From Patescibacteria group bacterium (GTDB lineage: Bacteria; Patescibacteriota; Minisyncoccia; Phycocordibacterales; JBBUBG01): DNA of 64,000 nt. The first letter of the stretch is position 1. Each line of letters begins with the position of its first letter. Where the stretch lies: contig JAZKIQ010000004.1 of the NCBI GenBank assembly GCA_040384765.1, positions 63,434 to 127,433 on the forward strand, given 5' to 3'. This document shows, one piece after another, positions 3,542 to 61,970 of the stretch. Below the pieces are notes generated by a model. That model had not been told where the DNA came from and made no database searches. It saw only the letters and a program-made list of their open reading frames with translations. The position numbers and the translations under genes were made by a program.

Positions 3542-3820
3542 CTAGGACATCTTTACTGCATCCTTGAGCGCTTTTGCTGCACGAAACTTCGGTGCTTTCA
3601 TCGAAGGCACCTGCACGGTCTCGCCGGTGCGTGGATTGCGCGCCGTGCGAGCTGCTCGGGTCTTTACCGAGAAGATACCAAGACCTGCTATCGAAACCTC
3701 ATCTCCTTTCTTGAGGCCATCTACGATAGCCCAGAGCATCGTGTCTACTGCCTCTTCAGCGGCAACTTTTGTCCCGCCAATCTTCGAGTGAACCGCATCG
3801 ATAATATTTTGCTTGTTCAT
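3542..3820 (-). CDS. hup: Nucleoid-associated DNA-binding protein HU
   Basis: 92-aa ORF MNKQNIIDAV...GLGIFSVKTRAARTARNPRTGETVQVPS, the typical HU/IHF fold signature. Confidence 0.9.
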   Translation of the reverse strand: MNKQNIIDAVHSKIGGTKVAAEEAVDTMLWAIVDGLKKGDEVSIAGLGIFSVKTRAARTARNPRTGETVQVPSMKAPKFRAAKALKDAVKMS

Positions 3821-3875
3821 ATGGTTGTTTGCCTCCTTGCATAGCGAGGAGGTTATTACGACCTTTAGCTAGGTA

Positions 3876-4053
3876 GTGTTCGCAATCTCGCGTCCTGTCA
3901 AAACGCCGGAGTTCCGAGCGAAAAACGAGATGGAGTTCGAGCCGTATAGTATACGGCTCGGGCGAAGCGCAGTTTTGCAGCCGGAACTCCGGCGTTTTGG
4001 CGGACGAGCGATACTTTCAGCCCATCCCTTCGCGGCGAGATTGTGAACACTGC
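3876..4053. other. Nested perfect inverted repeats (candidate structured RNA or element scar)
   Basis: Outer 18-bp arms 3876-3893/4036-4053 (one G-U). Inner 18-bp arms caaaacgccggagttccg 3899-3916 and cggaactccggcgttttg 3981-3998. Internal hairpin gagccgtatagtatacggctc. Confidence 0.35.
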
Positions 4054-11068: not shown

Positions 11069-12064
11069 TTAGTACCCCCAGTCAAATGAGTCCCAGTCGG
11101 AGCTGACGTACTCGCTTCCGTACGAAGGAGGGAGGTTCCAGCTGTCGTCCGAGGACCAGATATCCCCAGAAATGAGGCTTCCCGTGAGGGGAAGATCGTT
11201 TGCGGAGTTTGAGTACAGGTAGTCGTAGCGGGCAGAGGAGATTGCGTTGAGTGTTTCTGGGTAGTACCCGTGGTCGTTGTCTGACATGTAGCCAAAGATA
11301 TCTTCATCATCAGAGAAGAGGGTGCTTGGCGTGCTCGCTGGTACGTAGCCACTCGAGTATGAAGTAGGGGAAGCGGAGTAAAACGGAGTCGAGGCATCAT
11401 ACGTGCGACCGTAGTTTTCGAGCTCTGCTACATAGCCTGAAGTAAGCGGTGCGCCTGGGTAGTACTCGCGTGCCGGGGCAAGGCGTGATGGCGAGATATA
11501 TGAAGAGCCGTTTACACAGTAGCCACAGCTGTTGCCAAGGTTGCCGAGCGATACGGAAGCGCTCCAGACTGTTGGGTATGGGCCCGAAAGGGGAACGATA
11601 TAGTAGTCAGGGGTGTAGGTGTTGTAGGAGGTAAAGCCAGAGCGCGTCGCAAAGGCAGACTGATTGTATGAGGGTGCGCCAAAAAGAGATGCCGACCCTG
11701 GTGCAGGAGGCGGATTTGAGCCAGGTGCTGGTGGCGGGTTTGATCCTGGTGCGAATGAAGCAATAGGAAGGATGTTTGCCGTCCGGGGGAGAGGCGCCAC
11801 TACGTTTGTATTTATATGTGTAGTACCACCACCAATAAAGGCTGGTCCGTTATTAATAGGAGCAATGGGTACTGGTGTAGCCACGGGAGCGGCAGCAAAA
11901 GGGAGCGGCTTTGTGGCAAGCGCGGTGGTGTTTGTAGACGATGGGTAGTAGGGGTTGCCGGTATAAAAGGCGGCATCGGTGACTACCTGGGCATGAGCAA
12001 AGACAGGGGAGGCAAGAAGTGCACCCCCGACAACCGCTTTTGCAATATATTTGGTGAGTTCCAT
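11069..12064 (-). CDS. Secreted low-complexity P/S/Y/G-rich protein with tandem PGSNPPPA repeats
   Basis: Signal peptide MELTKYIAKAVVGGALLASPVFAHAQ; repeat PGSNPPPAPGSNPPPAPGS. Confidence 0.6.
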   Translation of the reverse strand: MELTKYIAKAVVGGALLASPVFAHAQVVTDAAFYTGNPYYPSSTNTTALATKPLPFAAAPVATPVPIAPINNGPAFIGGGTTHINTNVVAPLPRTANILPIASFAPGSNPPPAPGSNPPPAPGSASLFGAPSYNQSAFATRSGFTSYNTYTPDYYIVPLSGPYPTVWSASVSLGNLGNSCGYCVNGSSYISPSRLAPAREYYPGAPLTSGYVAELENYGRTYDASTPFYSASPTSYSSGYVPASTPSTLFSDDEDIFGYMSDNDHGYYPETLNAISSARYDYLYSNSANDLPLTGSLISGDIWSSDDSWNLPPSYGSEYVSSDWDSFDWGY

Positions 12065-13502: not shown

Positions 13503-14612
13503 ATGAATATCAGTCAAGAATCACAAGGAGTATCTCTCGGAGCAAAGCTGCTCGGTGTGCTGATGGTGCTCGTTGTCGGTTTTGGTATCGCGCGCGCCGA
13601 CTGGACAGCACCTGGCTCGACTCCACCGGGATGCACCGCTGGCACGGGGCCATGTGAGGCACCGATCAACGTAAGTAGTACCAACCAAACAAAAAGTGGC
13701 GGCCTTACGGTGAACGGAAATTTCATTCCACCGCGCCTTGCGACAGCCTCTCTCCCGACGTGCAATACTGCAAACAGGGGCTCAACTGTTTTTGATACGA
13801 CGGCAGGTAAGCTGAAAAATTGTGACGGTACTGTGTGGAAAGTGCTTGCCTCAGACGACCAGATTATCCCTCCCGTCCCATTTCCTTCTGGTGCAGTTAT
13901 GTCGTTTGATATAGCAAATACGGGATCACCGAATGATTGCCCTGCGGGTTGGACGGAGTTTACTGCCGCTGAAGGCCGATCTGTGGTGGGGCTTCAGTAC
14001 GCTGGAACGCTCCGTGGTACAGCAGGCACACCTCTGACAGATAGACAGGATAGACCTACTGGCTCGCATACCCACTACCAAGCTGTTCAGGATCACCCTA
14101 TTTATGGGTATGGGCATACGCATCCTGTTGCTGCAAGCTTTAGCGGTAGCGGTACCGGTAGCACTGAATTGCCTAGACATCGGCATTGGCTGGGTACTAA
14201 TCAATACGGTGGTGACGTCGGCGCCACAAGCCAATTTCATTTTGGAGGGAATGCTAATCAGCAGGGGTATACCTATGTAGGGTTCCAGGGGAGCGGTACG
14301 AATCTCGCCCCCTGGAGCGGCTACCAGGTTGGGTACGAGGGTGGCGTCAACGATTACTACTACGGCCAAAACCCATACGTAACCATAACGGTACCGATAT
14401 CAGGTTCAGTCTCGGGAACCGCAAGTAAAGCGCATGAAAATATTCAGGTGTACAATCCTATCCAGGGTGGCTGGACCTATACATACGATGGTGCTCAGTA
14501 CGCCCATCTCTACGAAGGGGGTTACGACACCAATGCTCCTACTCAGGCGGGTGCAAATATTGCGGGTACGAATGCTCCCTACATCCAGTTGTTGATGTGT
14601 AAAAAGAGTTAA
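13503..14612 (+). CDS. Membrane-anchored G/Y-rich surface protein, possible adhesin
   Basis: N-terminal TM LLGVLMVLVVGFGIA; CPAGWTEF and NCDGTVWKVL motifs reminiscent of tail-collar/adhesin folds (weak). Confidence 0.5.
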   Translation: MNISQESQGVSLGAKLLGVLMVLVVGFGIARADWTAPGSTPPGCTAGTGPCEAPINVSSTNQTKSGGLTVNGNFIPPRLATASLPTCNTANRGSTVFDTTAGKLKNCDGTVWKVLASDDQIIPPVPFPSGAVMSFDIANTGSPNDCPAGWTEFTAAEGRSVVGLQYAGTLRGTAGTPLTDRQDRPTGSHTHYQAVQDHPIYGYGHTHPVAASFSGSGTGSTELPRHRHWLGTNQYGGDVGATSQFHFGGNANQQGYTYVGFQGSGTNLAPWSGYQVGYEGGVNDYYYGQNPYVTITVPISGSVSGTASKAHENIQVYNPIQGGWTYTYDGAQYAHLYEGGYDTNAPTQAGANIAGTNAPYIQLLMCKKS

Positions 14613-14628
14613 TTATCTTCTTAAGTCT

Positions 14629-15096
14629 ATGCCTGAAAACGAAAAGTATCCTATCAGCGTCCTCCTTGCTGCTGTCTGCTTGCTTCTGCTTGGCTACCAG
14701 AATGTACAGCTTGCCTCGATCAGGAGTCTGCTTTCCCCGGGAGGTGCAGTTTCGTCTGAAATAAATCCACCCATACTGGACCCTTTGGATGTTTCTAAGC
14801 AAGCAAAAGCAGGCACTCCTCTTCTTGGCACCGTGGTGTCAATTAAGGGTGACGAGATCGTGGCTACTGCTCAGTATCAGCAAAATGGTGAAAGTAAAAC
14901 GAAGAAGGTGACACTTGTTCTTTCTTCGGATAGTGTGCTTGGACCGGGAGGTAGAAGCGCGCTCAAGGCTGGCGCTACTTTTTCAGCTCTTACCAAAGAG
15001 TCGGTTCTCGAGTCGGACCGCCTTACTGTTATCGGGCTGGGAATCATCCCTCCTTCGCCGCTTCCACCCCCACTTCCGCCTGAAATTGCTCAATAG
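14629..15096 (+). CDS. Small membrane-anchored hypothetical protein with Pro-rich C-terminus
   Basis: TM ISVLLAAVCLLLLGY; tail PPSPLPPPLPPE. Confidence 0.45.
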   Translation: MPENEKYPISVLLAAVCLLLLGYQNVQLASIRSLLSPGGAVSSEINPPILDPLDVSKQAKAGTPLLGTVVSIKGDEIVATAQYQQNGESKTKKVTLVLSSDSVLGPGGRSALKAGATFSALTKESVLESDRLTVIGLGIIPPSPLPPPLPPEIAQ

Positions 15097-58942: not shown

Positions 58943-60748
58943 ATGAATATAAGAAACATTGCAATTATCGCCCACGTAGACCACGGCAAGACCACTCTTG
59001 TTGATGCTTTGCTGCGGCAGTCGAACACCAAGCTTGCGAAAGAGGTGGCTGACTCGACCTGCATCATGGACTCAAACGAGCTTGAGAAGGAGCGCGGCAT
59101 TACTATTTTTTCTAAAAATGCGAGCGTCTTCTGGAAGGATGTGAAGCTCAATATTATTGACACGCCAGGCCACGCCGACTTCGGTGGGGAGGTGGAGCGC
59201 GTACTTTCCATGACCGACGGTGCGCTTCTCTTGGTGGATGCAAAGGAGGGTCCTATGCCGCAGACTCGCTTCGTACTTAAAAAGGCGCTTGAGATGAAAC
59301 TCAAGATTATTGTGGTGATCAACAAGGTAGACAAGTCCGACGCGCGCCCTGCTGTGGTTGTAGAGAAAGTGCTGGAGCTGTTTCTTGAGCTTGGAGCCGG
59401 AGAGAGCGCTCTCGATGTGCCGTTTGTGTATGCGGTGGCCCGCGAAGGCAAAGCTGGCCTTACGCCCGACATTCCTTCCATGAATGGCATCGCTCCTATT
59501 TTTGATGCGATTCTTGAACATATTCCTGCGCCTACGGGAGATGCCTCAAAGCCTCTTCAGATGCTGGTCTCGTCGATTGTCGGCGACAACTTCAAAGGCC
59601 GCATTGCTATTGGCCGTATTTATAACGGTGTGATCCACGCTGCCGAGCAGGTGATGCATATTAACCGCAGTGGTGAGATGAAGCCATATCGCCTTACATC
59701 GCTCATGACCTTTTCGGGCCTTGATCGCTTGGAAGCAAAGGAGGCATCTGCGGGAGATATTGTTTCAATCGCTGGAATTCCTGATATTACGATTGGTGAG
59801 ACGATTGCCGATCTCGCTACGCCTGTCGCACTTCCTCTTCTTGATATCGAAGAGCCAACGGTGAAGATGACCTTCAAGATCAACGACTCTCCGTTTGCAG
59901 GGAAGGAGGGGACATACTCTACTTCACGCCAGATCCGCGCACGCCTTATGAAAGAGCTTGAGACCGATATGGCGCTTCGCGTGGAAGATGGTCCTGATAA
60001 CACATGGGTTGTAGCTGGCCGCGGAGAGCTTCACCTGGCTATTGTCATCGAGCGCCTGCGTCGCGATGGGTTTGAATTTGCCGTTTCTCGTCCGCAGGTG
60101 ATCGTGAAAGAGGTGAATGAGGTAAAGATGGTGCCGTACGAAAAAGCGTATATCGAAGTGCCAGATCAGTTTGCGGGCGCGGTGATCCAAAAGCTAGGCA
60201 GCCGCCAGGGAGAGATGGCCGAGATGCGCTCAGAAAACGGGATCACATTTCTTGAATTTATCATTCCGACACGTGGCCTCTTTGGCTACCGCAGTGATCT
60301 CCTTACCGACTCGAAAGGGCTCGGCATCATCAATACGTCATTTCTTGAGTACCGACCTGAGCGTGGCGGCTTCCCTGAGCGTGCTAATGGCTCGCTGGTG
60401 GCCTTTGAGACGGGTGAGACGCGCCTCTTTGGCCTTCTCGCTGTGCAAGACCGTGGCGTGCTCTTCATTGGGCCGGCAGTACAGGTGTACAAGGGGCAGG
60501 TGGTGGGTAAGAACTCTCGTGTGGAAGACCTGCCAGTAAACGTATGTAAAGAGAAGCAGCTTTCAAACATGCGCTCCAAAGGTGATGGTCCTGCAGAGAA
60601 CCATGTGCCTCCAAAAATTATGAATCTTGAAGAGGCGCTTGAATATATCGGAGACGACGAGCTTGTGGAGGTGACGCCAAAGAGCGTACGTATCCGCAAG
60701 ATGGTGCTCGATGAGAATGAGGCCCGAAGAAAAGCACGAGGAATGTAG
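58943..60748 (+). CDS. typA: Translational GTPase TypA/BipA (start MNIRNIAIIAHVDHGKTT)
   Basis: 601 aa; EF-G-like domains. Confidence 0.94.
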   Translation: MNIRNIAIIAHVDHGKTTLVDALLRQSNTKLAKEVADSTCIMDSNELEKERGITIFSKNASVFWKDVKLNIIDTPGHADFGGEVERVLSMTDGALLLVDAKEGPMPQTRFVLKKALEMKLKIIVVINKVDKSDARPAVVVEKVLELFLELGAGESALDVPFVYAVAREGKAGLTPDIPSMNGIAPIFDAILEHIPAPTGDASKPLQMLVSSIVGDNFKGRIAIGRIYNGVIHAAEQVMHINRSGEMKPYRLTSLMTFSGLDRLEAKEASAGDIVSIAGIPDITIGETIADLATPVALPLLDIEEPTVKMTFKINDSPFAGKEGTYSTSRQIRARLMKELETDMALRVEDGPDNTWVVAGRGELHLAIVIERLRRDGFEFAVSRPQVIVKEVNEVKMVPYEKAYIEVPDQFAGAVIQKLGSRQGEMAEMRSENGITFLEFIIPTRGLFGYRSDLLTDSKGLGIINTSFLEYRPERGGFPERANGSLVAFETGETRLFGLLAVQDRGVLFIGPAVQVYKGQVVGKNSRVEDLPVNVCKEKQLSNMRSKGDGPAENHVPPKIMNLEEALEYIGDDELVEVTPKSVRIRKMVLDENEARRKARGM

Positions 60749-60756
60749 AAATAAAA

Positions 60757-60784
60757 AAAGCGCCGTAAGGCGCTTTTTTATTTG
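60757..60784 (+). terminator. Rho-independent terminator
   Basis: aaaaagcgccgtaaggcgctttttt. Confidence 0.7.
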
Positions 60785-60831
60785 CTAGACTTCTTACCCT
60801 GGCTGGTATTAATATCTATACAAGTTTGATT

Positions 60832-61041
60832 CGGGACGTGGTGTAACGGTAACATTCACGAGATGGGGTCGAATCTTTTGTCGGGCTATAGTGTAACGGT
60901 AACATTCACGATTCGGGTTCGTGAGACTCTGGGTTCAAATCCCAGTAGCCCGACAAAAGATTTGACGGGAATGCCCCAAGCGCATTCCCCGGATTTTCAG
61001 CAGAAAATGTGAGACTCCGGGTTCAAATCCCGGCGTCCCGA
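60832..61041 (+). tRNA. Split or nested tRNA-Pro(UGG)-like gene: 5' half 60832-60868, 3' half 61007-61041, interrupted by 138 nt that contain the tRNA-Pro(CGG) gene
   Basis: Acceptor CGGGACG pairs perfectly with CGTCCCG; T arm CCGGG-TTCAAAT-CCCGG (compensatory relative to the inner tRNA); anticodon loop GATGGGG. Confidence 0.4.
60882..60953 (+). tRNA. tRNA-Pro (anticodon CGG)
   Basis: Hand-folded: acceptor CGGGCTA/TAGCCCG; D stem GTGT/ACAT; anticodon stem CACGA/TCGTG; loop TTCGGGT; T arm CTGGG-TTCAAAT-CCCAG. Confidence 0.8.
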
Positions 61042-61159
61042 CTGAGCAAGGCGAAGGAGCGGAGGAGAAAATGCCCTGCGGCATTTTTGTTCGGTATTTG
61101 AAGGACTTTTCAATGTCGAGCAATGCGAGACGTGAAAAGTACCCGCGACGGTAGTCGAA

Positions 61160-61186
61160 AATCCCGGCGTCCCGACATTTTGACGG
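61160..61186 (+). repeat. Third copy of a tRNA-Pro 3' end (aaatcccggcgtcccgac) plus duplicated downstream sequence attttgacgg
   Basis: Exact 18-nt match to 61025-61042; following attttgacgg matches 60959-60970 (after the inner tRNA). Confidence 0.6.
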
Positions 61187-61298
61187 TTTGTGATCTGCGT
61201 TCTACCATAGAGCTTTTATTTGACAGGTATAACGGTTGAGGTAGATAATATCTCCATTAATTAACAAGGTCGAACGAAGCAAGTAATCAGAGTAAGAT

Positions 61299-61970
61299 AT
61301 GACGAACTACAAGCGAGGATCAACAGCGGCGGTACTCGTATCAGCAGTCGTGGGTCTTTTGGTAGGATACGGAATCGCACGCGGTACGAATGGAAGCGCT
61401 GTGCCAGCAGGTGACATGGCGCCAACCTCTGTTTCGAAAGCAGCAGATCTCCGTGTTGTGCTCAATGCTATTGAGCGACAGCACGTAGACCTCGCTTCAA
61501 CAGCTGTGCGCAACGCCTTTGATGGCAGCGCAGACACAAACGCATCAGTGGATGCCCTATCGGCAAACACGAAGCGTCTTTCAGATGCAGTAGCAAGTGT
61601 ATACGGAGCAGAGGCTGGGAAGAAATTCTCGGACATCTGGTCGAGCCACATCGGCTTCTTCGTAGACTATACGCTCGCTGCAAAGGCTGGCGATAAAGCA
61701 AAGATGGACAAAGCAGTGCAGAACCTCGGTGGATACGCAGATGCGGTCTCCGATTTTCTCTCACAGGCTAACCCAAACTTGCCTCGCGAAGCAGTGCACG
61801 GTCTCGTAATGCAGCACATTGGCCACCTCAAGGGTGCAGTTGATGCATACGGCCGGAAAGATTATGCCGGATCGTACACCGCTCAGTCTGAGGCGTACGA
61901 GCAGATTGGCAAAATTGCAGATGCGATCGCGGAAGCTATCGTAAAGCAGAAGCCAGAAGCGTTCAACTAG
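61299..61970 (+). CDS. Membrane-anchored hypothetical protein (223 aa), Ala/Asp-rich helical
   Basis: TM AVLVSAVVGLLVGYGIA. Confidence 0.5.
   Translation: MTNYKRGSTAAVLVSAVVGLLVGYGIARGTNGSAVPAGDMAPTSVSKAADLRVVLNAIERQHVDLASTAVRNAFDGSADTNASVDALSANTKRLSDAVASVYGAEAGKKFSDIWSSHIGFFVDYTLAAKAGDKAKMDKAVQNLGGYADAVSDFLSQANPNLPREAVHGLVMQHIGHLKGAVDAYGRKDYAGSYTAQSEAYEQIGKIADAIAEAIVKQKPEAFN

Follow-up and report, generated by a model that had tools for sequence, protein, structure and literature searches.

A tRNA-Pro gene nested between the halves of another tRNA-Pro gene in Patescibacteria: probable disruption by a tRNA-carrying cassette

The 64,000-nt stretch of Patescibacteria DNA analysed here (the 'window') contains a complete tRNA-Pro(CGG) gene placed between two halves of a second tRNA-Pro gene; a further copy of the 3′ end of the split gene follows a short distance downstream. 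How did one tRNA gene come to lie inside another, and does the split gene still yield a tRNA? We consider it probable (with a probability of about 0.6) that the locus is a 'Russian-doll' tRNA gene: a promoter-less cassette carrying a tRNA would have disrupted a resident tRNA-Pro gene and taken over its function, and what remains of that gene, the outer halves, would be relics. The elements of the locus are, in order:

58943–60748, + strand: typA/bipA, the upstream context gene (translation 100% identical to P0001, 'translational GTPase TypA, Patescibacteria group bacterium')
60749–60783, no strand assigned: bidirectional terminator hairpin 3′ of typA (inverted repeat I3/I1; placed on the minus strand by the terminator scan)
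60782–60813, + strand: putative promoter-like region, TTGCTAGACTTC ... TATTAAT, aligning with the region 5′ of tRNA-Pro in L054
60832–60871, + strand: 5′ half of the outer tRNA-Pro (direct repeat D1, sequence, in silico join)
60868–60881, + strand: leader strand (L) of the clamp helix (inverted repeat I2, MFE and centroid folds, covariation table)
60882–60953, + strand: complete inner tRNA-Pro(CGG), CCA not encoded (ARAGORN; Rfam tRNA, 63.4 bits, E = 2e-11)
60953–60966, + strand: trailer strand (T) of the clamp (inverted repeat I2, fold, covariation table)
60967–60989, + strand: hairpin 1, GGGAATGC / GCATTCCC (fold)
60993–61008, + strand: hairpin 2, ATTTTC / GAAAAT, abutting the outer 3′ half (fold)
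61009–61041, + strand: 3′ half of the outer tRNA-Pro (direct repeat D3, in silico join)
61043–61158, + strand: small module between the 18-nt repeats (inverted repeat I4, fold, homologous modules in L067, L065 and L078)
61159–61176, + strand: exact third copy of the 3′ end, outer tRNA nt 57–73 plus one base (direct repeat D2)
61177–61186, + strand: flank ATTTTGACGG, resembling ATTTGACGG (60960–60968) in the trailer of the inner tRNA (sequence)

A preliminary description of this DNA had placed a complete tRNA-Pro(CGG) at 60882–60953 between two halves of another tRNA-Pro; the complete gene is confirmed by both ARAGORN and Rfam. The inner gene is the sole tRNA detected by ARAGORN in the 64 kb and the only one to reach the Rfam tRNA threshold; among the known RNA families of Rfam, none besides tRNA was found in the window and four analogous loci (L059, L062, L064 and L065). 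By the wobble rules, an anticodon with C34 reads CCG only. Other tRNA-Pro genes must exist, because all four proline codons are in use.

The locus is identical, base for base, in an independent Logan contig (L001, SRR26324625); together with the occurrence of the same architecture in many unrelated assemblies, this identity rules out an assembly artefact. The promoter-like region was not called by a sigma-70 consensus scan. Its motif GCTAGACT is also found 5′ of the tRNA genes in L096 and L087, and the case for promoter orthology with L054 is weakened by the fact that this motif is common to tRNA promoters of distant CPR lineages.

The outer 5′ half, described earlier as 60832–60868 with a UGG anticodon and A33 (the end moves to 60871 if T39, C40 and G41 are counted), is made up of the acceptor strand CGGGACG, a D arm, the anticodon stem strand CACGA, the loop GAUGGGG (UGG anticodon with G32 and A33) and TCG (nt 39–41). 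The outer 3′ half comprises nt 41/42–43, a variable loop, the T arm CCGGG/CCCGG, the acceptor strand CGTCCCG and A73. Outer and inner 5′ halves are 80% identical over 41 nt, 21 consecutive identical nt included, and the outer 3′ half (61009–61042) is 85% identical to the inner one. As first noticed, the outer acceptor strands CGGGACG/CGTCCCG pair at 7/7 positions, and the outer T stem differs from the inner one (CTGGG/CCCAG) by one compensatory pair. Deletion of 138 nt (60872–61009) in silico, i.e. joining of 60832–60871 to 61010–61042, produces a 73-nt cloverleaf which ARAGORN calls tRNA-Pro(UGG), with G32 and A33. The full cloverleaf restored by this removal and the 7/7 acceptor pairing are points against the view of the halves as relics.

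The inner tRNA is enclosed by a long helix. The inverted repeat 60868–60888/60946–60966 (21 nt, 95% complementary) adds 14 bp of leader/trailer pairing to the inner acceptor stem; stacked on each other, the two helices form 21 base pairs in a row, with no interruption at the A73/T-1 pair. Both the MFE and the centroid folds of 60825–61185 contain this helix and the two hairpins that follow it (z = −6.2). Among five type-A units, 69 of 70 cells over clamp positions 1–14 are paired, with two to four different pair types at each of positions 4–12; the clamp sequences vary among loci yet remain complementary. Judged from these alignments, the clamp is a real structure held by compensatory change. 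Counts of G·U versus A·C mismatches, which would bear on RNA- versus DNA-level constraint, had few non-Watson–Crick positions to draw on. Where the scan was in register, nested inner tRNAs were flanked by clamps of 10–17 bp; in ∼35 other CPR tRNAs examined, leader/trailer pairing was mostly 8 bp or fewer. Both hairpins keep their positions in L060, L062 and L067, hairpin 1 with a different sequence and hairpin 2 with compensatory changes. In L067, the leader/trailer pairs L1/T1 and L2/T2 differ at most positions, while the adjacent hairpin is identical.

At least 10 other loci of Patescibacteria show the nested architecture. Metagenomes scanned for a pair of tRNA-Pro D arms 20–50 nt apart yielded nine loci, seven of them with this layout; yraN synteny led to further nested loci (L078, L087/L088 and L096–L100), and nested tRNA-Arg and tRNA-Gln genes were found as well. 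In type-B loci the flanking motifs GCCC ... GGGTGAAGGT are the same around different inner tRNAs (Pro-CGG, Pro-GGG and Arg-CCG). Nesting is absent from the nearest relatives of the window: L054 (TypA 90%) has a lone tRNA-Pro(CGG), and L055 and L056 have no tRNA-Pro. In distant relatives (TypA synteny, 52 genome loci) no tRNA-Pro was found downstream of typA. Searches of viral contigs gave no match to the two-D-arm signature, and the matches to the GGGTGAAGGT motif were chance matches to ordinary phage tRNAs only.

What became of the outer halves elsewhere bears directly on their status. In L078 the 5′ half is decayed but kept, and the trailer, both hairpins and the 3′ half are lost. The outermost 5′ half of L064 has an internal deletion of ∼29 nt. 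L065 has one outer gene without a 3′ half and a second with G8 and a D loop containing a 20-nt palindrome. The outer gene of L060 combines A8 with three mismatches in the acceptor stem and an insert of 27 nt in the T loop; its clamp is nonetheless perfect. In L096 the outer and inner 5′ halves are identical, and an outer 3′ half is missing. All type-A loci other than the window lack nt 39–40 of the outer gene. Small palindromes are present elsewhere within the outer halves of L087, L065 and L060. The outer halves are most likely relics of a disrupted tRNA gene.

Analogous loci, though not the window locus, show presence/absence polymorphism at a single site. The tRNA-Pro(GGG) that is intact in L089 is split by a cassette in L087/L088, with loss of resident nt 38–39; the three contigs share one YraN protein, and L087/L088 agree with L089 at 127 of the first 128 aligned positions, a stretch that includes the first 18 nt of the tRNA. 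The filled allele has extra palindromes, and its downstream flank is diverged; the difference between L087 and L089 may reflect whole-allele exchange instead of a fresh insertion. A second such pair is formed by L059 and L064: the inner tRNA of the former has the same sequence as the split outer halves of the latter. As to the initial suggestion that the outer halves make up one functional tRNA, the rebuilt cloverleaf and the intact 'before' state in L089 (versus L087) bear out a single, formerly intact gene; its present function is opposed by G32/A33 and by the decay seen elsewhere.

These observations can be accommodated as follows. The resident (outer) tRNA-Pro, with its own promoter, would have been interrupted in the 3′ strand of the anticodon stem by a promoter-less cassette of 138 nt, consisting of a leader, a complete tRNA-Pro(CGG), a complementary trailer and two hairpins. 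The promoter of the outer gene would now drive transcription of the whole nested unit, and the helix with the two hairpins would let the inner tRNA fold separately from outer halves that are nearly identical to it. A normal tRNA-Pro(CGG) could then be freed by RNase P and RNase Z, perhaps once RNase III has cut the long stem. The outer halves would stay unjoined; gene conversion would hold their interior close to that of the inner gene, and the rest would be free to decay. Candidate insertion routes are a trans-acting nuclease or recombinase, homologous whole-allele exchange, or template switching during replication, with the leader made as a copy of the trailer.

A Pfam scan of ten ORFs in 52–64 kb of the window identified no integrase or transposase; the preliminary description had likewise reported no integrase in the window. 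Products of these ORFs include SecA, members of the glucosamine-6-phosphate isomerase/6-phosphogluconolactonase and F420-0:gamma-glutamyl ligase families, a methyltransferase, a bestrophin-like protein, an RRM protein and unknowns. Across the other nested loci, no enzyme or mobility gene turns up consistently: small GIY-YIG ORFs are near two loci only, and yraN (UPF0102), located upstream of several loci, belongs to a conserved synteny seen at non-nested loci too. Clamp sequences differ between copies, unlike the terminal repeats bound by transposases, which is a point against the cassette view.

The third copy of the outer 3′ end calls for a separate explanation. The sequence AAATCCCGGCGTCCCGAC at 61159–61176 is identical to 61025–61042 at 18 of 18 positions (the repeat noticed earlier lies one base to the left of its first placement), and the similarity of what follows it, ATTTTGACGG, to ATTTGACGG after the inner tRNA is likewise borne out. 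With up to three mismatches allowed, AAATCCCGGCGTCCCGAC has two matches in the window versus 0.08 expected, which rules out chance origin. The 116 bp between the repeats contain a hairpin at 61068–61087 (loop CTGC), an 11-nt antisense copy of the T-loop/T-stem (CGGTATTTGAA, 61092–61102), a hairpin at 61105–61140 and the motif TAGTCGA (61152–61158). Homologues of this module adjoin tRNA-Pro and tRNA-Arg in other genomes (L067 and L065; tRNA-Arg in L078), and within this one module family the antisense T-arm segment follows the host tRNA, matching tRNA-Pro in the window and L067 and tRNA-Arg in L078. Next to tRNA-Pro and tRNA-Gly there is a related module of different build, its antisense segment likewise matched to the neighbouring tRNA. 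BLAST of 60955–61200 against phage and plasmid records gave no match. A scan of viral contigs with the 18-mer gave two unrelated matches, and one viral contig carries the 18-mer as an isolated tRNA 3′ fragment. We suggest that the 18-nt repeat belongs to another insertion, distinct from that of the cassette and located in the T loop of the outer gene, which brought in a small module made of a replacement tRNA 3′ end, a hairpin, the antisense T-arm segment and a short structured body; this insertion would have displaced the original 3′ end 134 nt downstream. Both module types recur in Patescibacteria; they would land in tRNA loops together with a copy of the part that they disrupt.

Three other explanations have to be weighed against the cassette reading. 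Could the outer gene be a functional interrupted or split tRNA-Pro(UGG)? The inner tRNA would be excised by RNase P/RNase Z, and the outer pieces, held by the leader/trailer 'zip code' and the acceptor stem, would be trimmed and ligated by a bacterial pathway, as in the split tRNAs of Nanoarchaeum. Such a product is suggested by the cloverleaf tRNA-Pro(UGG) obtained on precise removal of 60872–61009, by the perfect pairing of the outer acceptor and T stems, by a matched leader/trailer pair for each nesting level (L1/T1 versus L2/T2 in L067), by the canonical UUUGGGG outer loops of L060, L062 and L067, and by the use of CCA, CCU and CCC codons, unreadable by tRNA-Pro(CGG) alone. Against it stand G32 and A33 in the outer loop of the window, the lack of a bulge-helix-bulge, and the two hairpins located between the trailer and the 3′ exon. 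Furthermore, nt 39–40 are missing in other type-A loci and nt 38–39 in L087; the outer halves are decayed or lost in L078, L064, L065, L060 and L096; and the outer gene is redundant in units where outer and inner anticodons are alike (UGG/UGG in L062, Arg CCG/CCG in L061, GGG/GGG in L087). ARAGORN in intron mode does 'find' outer genes, but it forces inconsistent identities on them (Phe, Cys and Leu) and borrows hairpin loops as anticodon loops, and its calls are uninformative. We regard a functional outer gene as very improbable. The chance is slighter still that tRNA-Pro(UGG) continues to be made by trimming and ligating the 'zip code'-paired halves, which would amount to protein-dependent splicing or trans-joining in Bacteria, with one tRNA serving as another's intron. 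A 138-nt intervening sequence had been proposed as an alternative at the outset; the gene is indeed interrupted, with a whole tRNA inside, and signs of a spliced intron are lacking (no group I core, no bulge-helix-bulge, G32/A33, decay of outer halves, base loss in L087).

The two remaining explanations concern the origin of the structure. The preliminary description called the direct-repeat mosaic typical of integrase attL/attR scars. In this view, tyrosine-integrase elements would have entered the 3′ end of tRNA-Pro and later been almost wholly deleted, the nesting being a by-product of several events. The tRNA 3′ end from T loop to discriminator is a sublocation used by many tRNA-targeting integrases, and the exact 18-nt direct repeat covers just this part. 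In L067 the tRNA-proximal copy has a foreign acceptor strand (CGCCCCGA) and the distal copy (CATCCCGA) fits the resident 5′ half, as expected for a replacement end borne by attP; the isolated 3′ fragment on the viral contig points the same way. Still, att scars fit the 18-nt repeat only, and poorly: the repeats are only 116 bp apart, the ten ORFs scanned in 52–64 kb include no integrase, phage and plasmid records contain nothing similar to the interval, and the latter is a conserved small module whose antisense T-arm segment is re-matched to the host tRNA (to our knowledge, integrase att sites are not known to do so). The upstream 5′ half, the complete internal tRNA and the leader/trailer clamp are all left unexplained, and we consider att scars improbable. 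An origin with no mobile element, from local replication errors (microhomology-mediated template switching or fold-back synthesis), is also unlikely, if less remote. Here the polymerase would have reverse-copied the 3′ flank of the tRNA into the leader, re-entered via the self-complementary acceptor stem and partly duplicated the tRNA halves. Consistent with such copying, leader and trailer are reverse complements, and in each of the five type-A units the helix passes N-1/N73 without a break and continues as the acceptor stem; the outermost pairs join G37 and G38 of the outer loop to CC after the trailer, a possible microhomology; trailers resemble ordinary A-rich tRNA 3′ flanks (CAAAA...); the outer 5′ half of L096 is identical to the inner one, with the outer 3′ half absent; and the cassette-adjacent 3′ half fits the inner acceptor in L060 and L067. 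What speaks against it are the outer acceptor strands, which pair mutually and are several compensatory pairs away from the inner ones (window, L062, L061, L059, L064, L065 and L087); therefore, the outer halves derive from a different, once-intact gene. The type-B flanking motifs, constant around different inner tRNAs, and the conservation of the two hairpins and of their compensatory changes across distant loci also speak against it.

Several known systems share features with the nested loci. Archaeal disrupted tRNA genes include bulge-helix-bulge introns at canonical and non-canonical positions and the split and tri-split tRNAs of Nanoarchaeum and Caldivirga (PMC4033280, PMC4090602). There, too, halves are set apart by intervening sequence with matched complementary sequences beside them, and the analogous loci described here have insertions in D, anticodon, variable and T loops. 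The differences are the bacterial host, the full tRNA inside, the decay of the outer gene, the junction bases lost in some loci and the absence of a bulge-helix-bulge: no 3-4-3 motif was seen by folding (60825–61185) or inspection, and two hairpins part the trailer from the 3′ half. Group I introns reside in anticodon loops of bacterial tRNAs, including tRNA-Asn and tRNA-Asp of Patescibacteria at position 35/36 (PMC13011429). The phylum, the general site in or near the anticodon loop and the hiding of tRNA genes from standard annotation are the same; in contrast, the insert here has 138 nt, 72 of which are tRNA, and no Rfam group I match. A group I intron was rejected, with no core in Rfam gathering and E-value scans and too short a sequence. 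The base preceding the insert is G60871, not U, and the last insert base is G61009.

Islands and prophages of tRNA-targeting tyrosine integrases resemble the present loci in inserting within a tRNA gene with a copy of the displaced part, so that tRNA function survives, and in having a 3′-end direct repeat from T loop to discriminator. The inserts described here, however, are non-coding, of 116–190 nt and with no integrase found; one type has a whole tRNA as cargo, with a 5′ half remaining upstream, and the other carries an antisense T-arm segment. With the RNase III processing stalks of rRNA operons the clamp shares a long helix formed from stable-RNA flanks and fast compensatory evolution, but it flanks a single tRNA nested in a tRNA gene, and cleavage by RNase III is putative. 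REP/MITE-like palindromic insertions are likewise short, non-coding, palindromic and polymorphic between strains. Unlike them, the nested cassettes have stem sequences that vary between copies, a functional tRNA as cargo and no target-site duplications. Their terminal inverted repeats are not conserved in sequence: leader and trailer differ by locus, with only TGT...ACA and GGTT...AACC kept. No target-site duplication was found at the junctions; L087 instead lacks two resident bases.

Our literature search turned up no account of one bacterial tRNA gene nested in another, and the layout is apparently so far undescribed in Patescibacteria (CPR). It has consequences for annotation: standard tRNA finders report only the inner gene, and intron mode invents Phe, Cys and Leu for the outer one. 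Mis-annotation of this kind distorts tRNA-based completeness estimates and anticodon inventories of CPR genomes. The clamp, with its compensatory changes, is a testable case of how one tRNA embedded in a near-identical one is folded and processed. Should the outer tRNAs be rejoined, which is unlikely, tRNA splicing of the archaeal kind would exist in Bacteria. For evolution, the loci keep dated fossils of replaced tRNA genes and strain-level filled and empty alleles (L087 versus L089), which together make tRNA gene turnover and gene conversion measurable. If our reading is right, some Patescibacteria have small non-coding insertions in tRNA loops that neutralize their own damage by bringing a replacement: one type would supply a complete tRNA with a processing stem of its own, the other a new 3′ end.

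The locus is flanked by typA (58943-60748) on one side and by a gene for 223 aa of unknown function (61299-61970) on the other. The host is a member of the Patescibacteria (CPR). Its TypA has 100% identity to an NCBI protein recorded for a 'Patescibacteria group bacterium', and the species-level genomes that match it best belong to CPR lineages (≤72% identity). ARAGORN and Rfam detected one tRNA gene in the whole 64 kb, the inner tRNA-Pro(CGG) (63.4 bits). The preliminary description had placed tRNA-Pro fragments around this complete gene; repeat analysis bore this out and located three fragments. The locus is base-for-base the same in an independent Logan assembly, and a chance-expectation count ruled out a chance origin of the 18-nt repeat.

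Features of the locus in the window
60832-60871: 5' half of an outer tRNA-Pro, 80% identical to the inner 5' half, including 21 consecutive identical bases
60868-60888 and 60946-60966: arms of a 21-nt inverted repeat around the inner tRNA
60882-60953: inner tRNA-Pro(CGG), complete
60967-60989 and 60993-61008: two hairpins after the trailer, the second abutting the outer 3' half
61009-61042: 3' half of the outer tRNA-Pro, 85% identical to the inner 3' half
61092-61102: 11-nt antisense copy of the T loop and T stem, preceded by one hairpin and followed by a second, all between the 18-nt repeats
61159-61176: exact 18-nt copy of the outer 3' end (repeat analysis)

Joining 60832-60871 to 61010-61042 in silico gave a canonical cloverleaf, called by ARAGORN as tRNA-Pro(UGG); both outer pieces thus come from a single gene, halved by a 138-nt interruption. 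The rebuilt anticodon loop reads GAUGGGG, i.e. with G32 and A33; U33 is almost universal in tRNA anticodon loops. The inverted repeat, overlooked in the preliminary description, adds 14 pairs to the 7-bp acceptor stem of the inner tRNA. The resulting clamp, in which the leader before the inner tRNA pairs with the trailer after it, continues unbroken across the pair of discriminator A73 with the base preceding the tRNA. Predicted folding of the 361-nt region was far better than that of shuffled controls (z = -6.2), and both MFE and centroid predicted structures put the inner cloverleaf on a long stalk.

The motif (T)TGCTAGACT(TC), found ~40-50 nt upstream of tRNA genes, is common to distant CPR lineages and may be a lineage-typical tRNA promoter element. 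It occurs at 60784-60793 in the window and in three of the Patescibacteria loci (L numbers) compared with it: L054 (reverse strand, near 12010-12040), L096 (near 2668-2680) and L087 (near 1712-1722).

Nesting is absent from the closest TypA relatives of the window: in L054 (TypA 90%) the tRNA-Pro(CGG) stands alone and on the opposite strand, and no tRNA was found at the corresponding position in L055 (87%) or L056 (83%). We searched public metagenome contigs for pairs of tRNA-Pro D arms spaced 20-50 nt, a distance impossible for normal tandem tRNA genes. The scan, whose tRNA-Pro D-arm pattern biases the sample of analogous loci, yielded nine loci, seven of them with window-like architecture. 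In the common order, an outer 5' half that stops at or within the anticodon loop comes first, followed by a leader, a complete tRNA, a trailer that is the complement of this leader, further hairpins or conserved motifs and the outer 3' half. Further nested cases were reached through yraN (UPF0102), the gene upstream of several loci: L078, L087/L088 and L096-L100, the last group including a published Zambryskibacteria genome.

Types of nested unit
Type A (window, L060, L062/L084, L067, L096): outer loop (U)UUGGGG; two hairpins after the trailer
Type B (L059, L061, L064, L065): conserved junction motifs GCCC...GGGTGAAGGT

Nesting reaches two or three levels in L067 and L064 and was also seen for tRNA-Arg(CCG) and tRNA-Gln(UUG). 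In L067 (1720-2060) a tRNA-Gln(UUG) with a 12-bp leader/trailer clamp sits in another tRNA-Gln, whose D arm and anticodon arm it separates (~position 26); after it the trailer is repeated once more together with an anticodon-arm fragment. In L061 (oriented 14460-14660, minus strand; inner tRNA at original coordinates 246-318) a tRNA-Arg(CCG), clamped over 12 bp, lies inside a second tRNA-Arg(CCG), and its junction motifs, GCCC...GGGTGAAG, are shared with the proline units of that cluster. Short ORFs for GIY-YIG nucleases (Pfam PF01541) adjoin tRNA genes in L059 (707-976, between the nested tRNA-Pro unit and tRNA-Pro(GGG)) and L060 (1379-1672); there is none in the window or in the other loci. 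In one Zambryskibacteria strain (L100, 1-1184) the stretch upstream of tRNA-Arg, tRNA-Gly, yraN and the nested tRNA-Pro holds a gene for an IS110-family transposase and a fragment of a resolvase; its sister strains have a CCA-adding enzyme gene in that place. Full-text literature searches turned up no account of bacterial tRNA genes nested in one another; closest was a paper on group I introns in the tRNA-Asn and tRNA-Asp of Patescibacteria (PMC13011429).

Across five type-A units, clamp positions 1-14 from the tRNA ends are paired in 69 of 70 cells (67 Watson-Crick, 2 G·U), with two to four different pair types at each of positions 4-12; sequence conservation is limited to the ends (TGT/ACA and GGTT/AACC). 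Both post-trailer hairpins are likewise kept with differing sequences. By this covariation the clamp is a real, maintained helix. Nested inner tRNAs that could be scored by a register-limited scan have clamps of 10-17 bp, versus mostly ≤8 bp of leader/trailer pairing for ~35 other tRNAs of CPR loci. The exceptions, clamped yet not ordinary nested type-A or type-B units, are the L067 tRNA-Gln, the L060 tRNA-Ala and the L084 tRNA-Leu (13 bp). The L060 clamp is perfect over 17 bp although the outer gene is badly damaged, which argues that selection acts on the clamp and not on the outer gene. The L084 gene (9598-9712), a tRNA-Leu(CAG) clamped by TGCCGCAACATAT / ATATGTTGCGGCA, corresponds in position to a tRNA-Leu(CAG) of the closely related L078 (1166-1250) that has no clamp and a different acceptor; the L084 gene may be a replacement without visible outer halves.

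Decay of the outer halves was seen in several loci. L078 is a close relative of L062/L084 (YraN 85% identical); its outer 5' half is at the same place but degraded (D arm GTATAACAGCTGATAT, loop TTTTTTTGGG), nothing is left of the trailer, the two hairpins or the outer 3' half, and the single tRNA directly adjoins the old downstream flank. The outermost 5' half of L064 has a ~29-nt internal deletion; in L065 one outer gene lacks its 3' half, and a second has G8 together with a D loop that contains a perfect palindrome of 20 nt. In the L060 outer gene position 8 is A, the acceptor has three mismatches and the T loop an insert of 27 nt; the outer gene of L096 is reduced to a 5' half. In several units outer and inner genes have the same anticodon, so that the outer one is redundant. 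On this comparison the outer halves behave as relics. The D arms and anticodon stems of outer and inner genes are near-identical in the window and L062, a likeness best explained by gene conversion between the direct repeats; L078 does not show it.

Small GC-rich palindromes, TCCGCCAGnnGGCGGA and CCTGCCTGCCGGCAGGCAGG, recur within outer halves (D loop, T loop, junctions), in T-loop modules and, elsewhere, as terminator-like hairpins. Sites are L087 3094-3112 and 3309-3326, L064 near 6268, L078 near 1063, L065 7530-7553 and L060 9065-9092.

The 18-nt repeat of the window is part of a second module that recurs. Its homologs come after tRNA-Pro halves (L067, L065) and tRNA-Arg(UCG) (L078), and in every one of them both the antisense segment and the distal sense copy agree with the local tRNA. 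The L078 module (990-1150; also in L079-L082) is homologous to window 61092-61158; its antisense CAGGATTCGAA and sense copy GAATCCTGCCGGGGGCA fit tRNA-Arg, not tRNA-Pro. In L084, related to L078, the module is reduced to a truncated start. In L067 the tRNA-adjoining copy has a foreign acceptor strand. The distal copy matches the local 5' half and precedes the trailer that pairs with the leader one level further out, which makes it the original 3' end and the arrangement a proper nesting.

A related, differently built module follows intact tRNA-Pro(UGG) (L064, L065) and tRNA-Gly(UCC) (L061), with an antisense segment of 17-21 nt and a conserved body of 100-170 nt.

Sites of the differently built module
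L064 6616-6866 and 6075-6253, minus strand (original coordinates)
L065 1271-1478, minus strand
L061 604-794, minus strand, and 3693-3924, plus strand

It is structured, also occurs downstream of outer tRNA-Pro halves and has no Rfam match. Its consensus is GAGGnGGGGTC[GGGAGG..CCTCCC]GTGAAGG..[AAACCGnGGGTTT]..AAAGCGCAG[hairpin]GAGCAGTGA; the antisense segment, a copy of the T arm and acceptor 3' strand of the local tRNA, always precedes it, and a sense copy of tRNA nt 60-73 follows. A 74-kb viral contig (L057, 5000-5040) holds a stand-alone tRNA 3' fragment, GGGTTCAAATCCCGGCGTCCCGACCA, unaccompanied by any 5' portion of a tRNA; it looks like an att site and appears otherwise unrelated to the window although the 18-mer is common to both.

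T-loop modules resemble integrase logic in that the element supplies a replacement end; unlike integrase elements they are tiny and contain an antisense piece, and no integrase was found. The window insert likewise compensates for the gene it breaks, as tRNA-targeting integrative elements do; a scan of ten ORFs in the 52-64 kb stretch turned up no integrase, and there is no element-sized insert. Classical integrase scars would account for the direct repeat but for nothing else, and we regard them as unlikely. With archaeal disrupted tRNA genes the locus shares halves, matched complementary flanks and multiple insertion positions; the bulge-helix-bulge motif is absent from the predicted fold. 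Nor did the window locus test as a group I intron. That the outer tRNA of the window functions after its halves are rejoined is conceivable, since precise excision would restore the cloverleaf and the CCA, CCU and CCC codons in use are unreadable by a CGG anticodon alone; A33 in its loop and the comparative decay of outer halves in other loci make this unlikely.

The reading we favor, with a probability of about 0.6, is that a cassette with a tRNA but no promoter of its own broke up a resident tRNA-Pro gene and took over the promoter of that gene. Clamp and hairpins would insulate the inner tRNA for processing by RNase P and RNase Z, the outer halves being left as relics; the steps from transcription to processing are inferred. 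The cassette could have arrived by insertion through a trans-acting enzyme, by whole-allele exchange through homologous recombination or by replication template switching, and each route agrees with some of the data. A neat explanation of why the leader reproduces the trailer exactly in reverse, through N73 and with GG/CC microhomology, would be template switching.

Filled and empty alleles could be compared directly. L087/L088 and L089 have the same YraN protein and match at 127 of the first 128 aligned positions, reaching into the first 18 nt of the tRNA. The tRNA-Pro(GGG) that is intact in L089 is split in L087/L088 after loop position 37 by ~190 nt holding a clamped, different tRNA-Pro(GGG). 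Resident positions 38-39 are absent there, and small palindromes lie in the outer D arm and T loop; as read from this allele, precise excision could not regenerate the original tRNA, at least in L087. In a second pair, the intact innermost tRNA of L059 is the split outer gene of L064, identical over all 65 retained bases. At the level of sequence comparison, these two pairs show gain or exchange of nesting within short spans of time.
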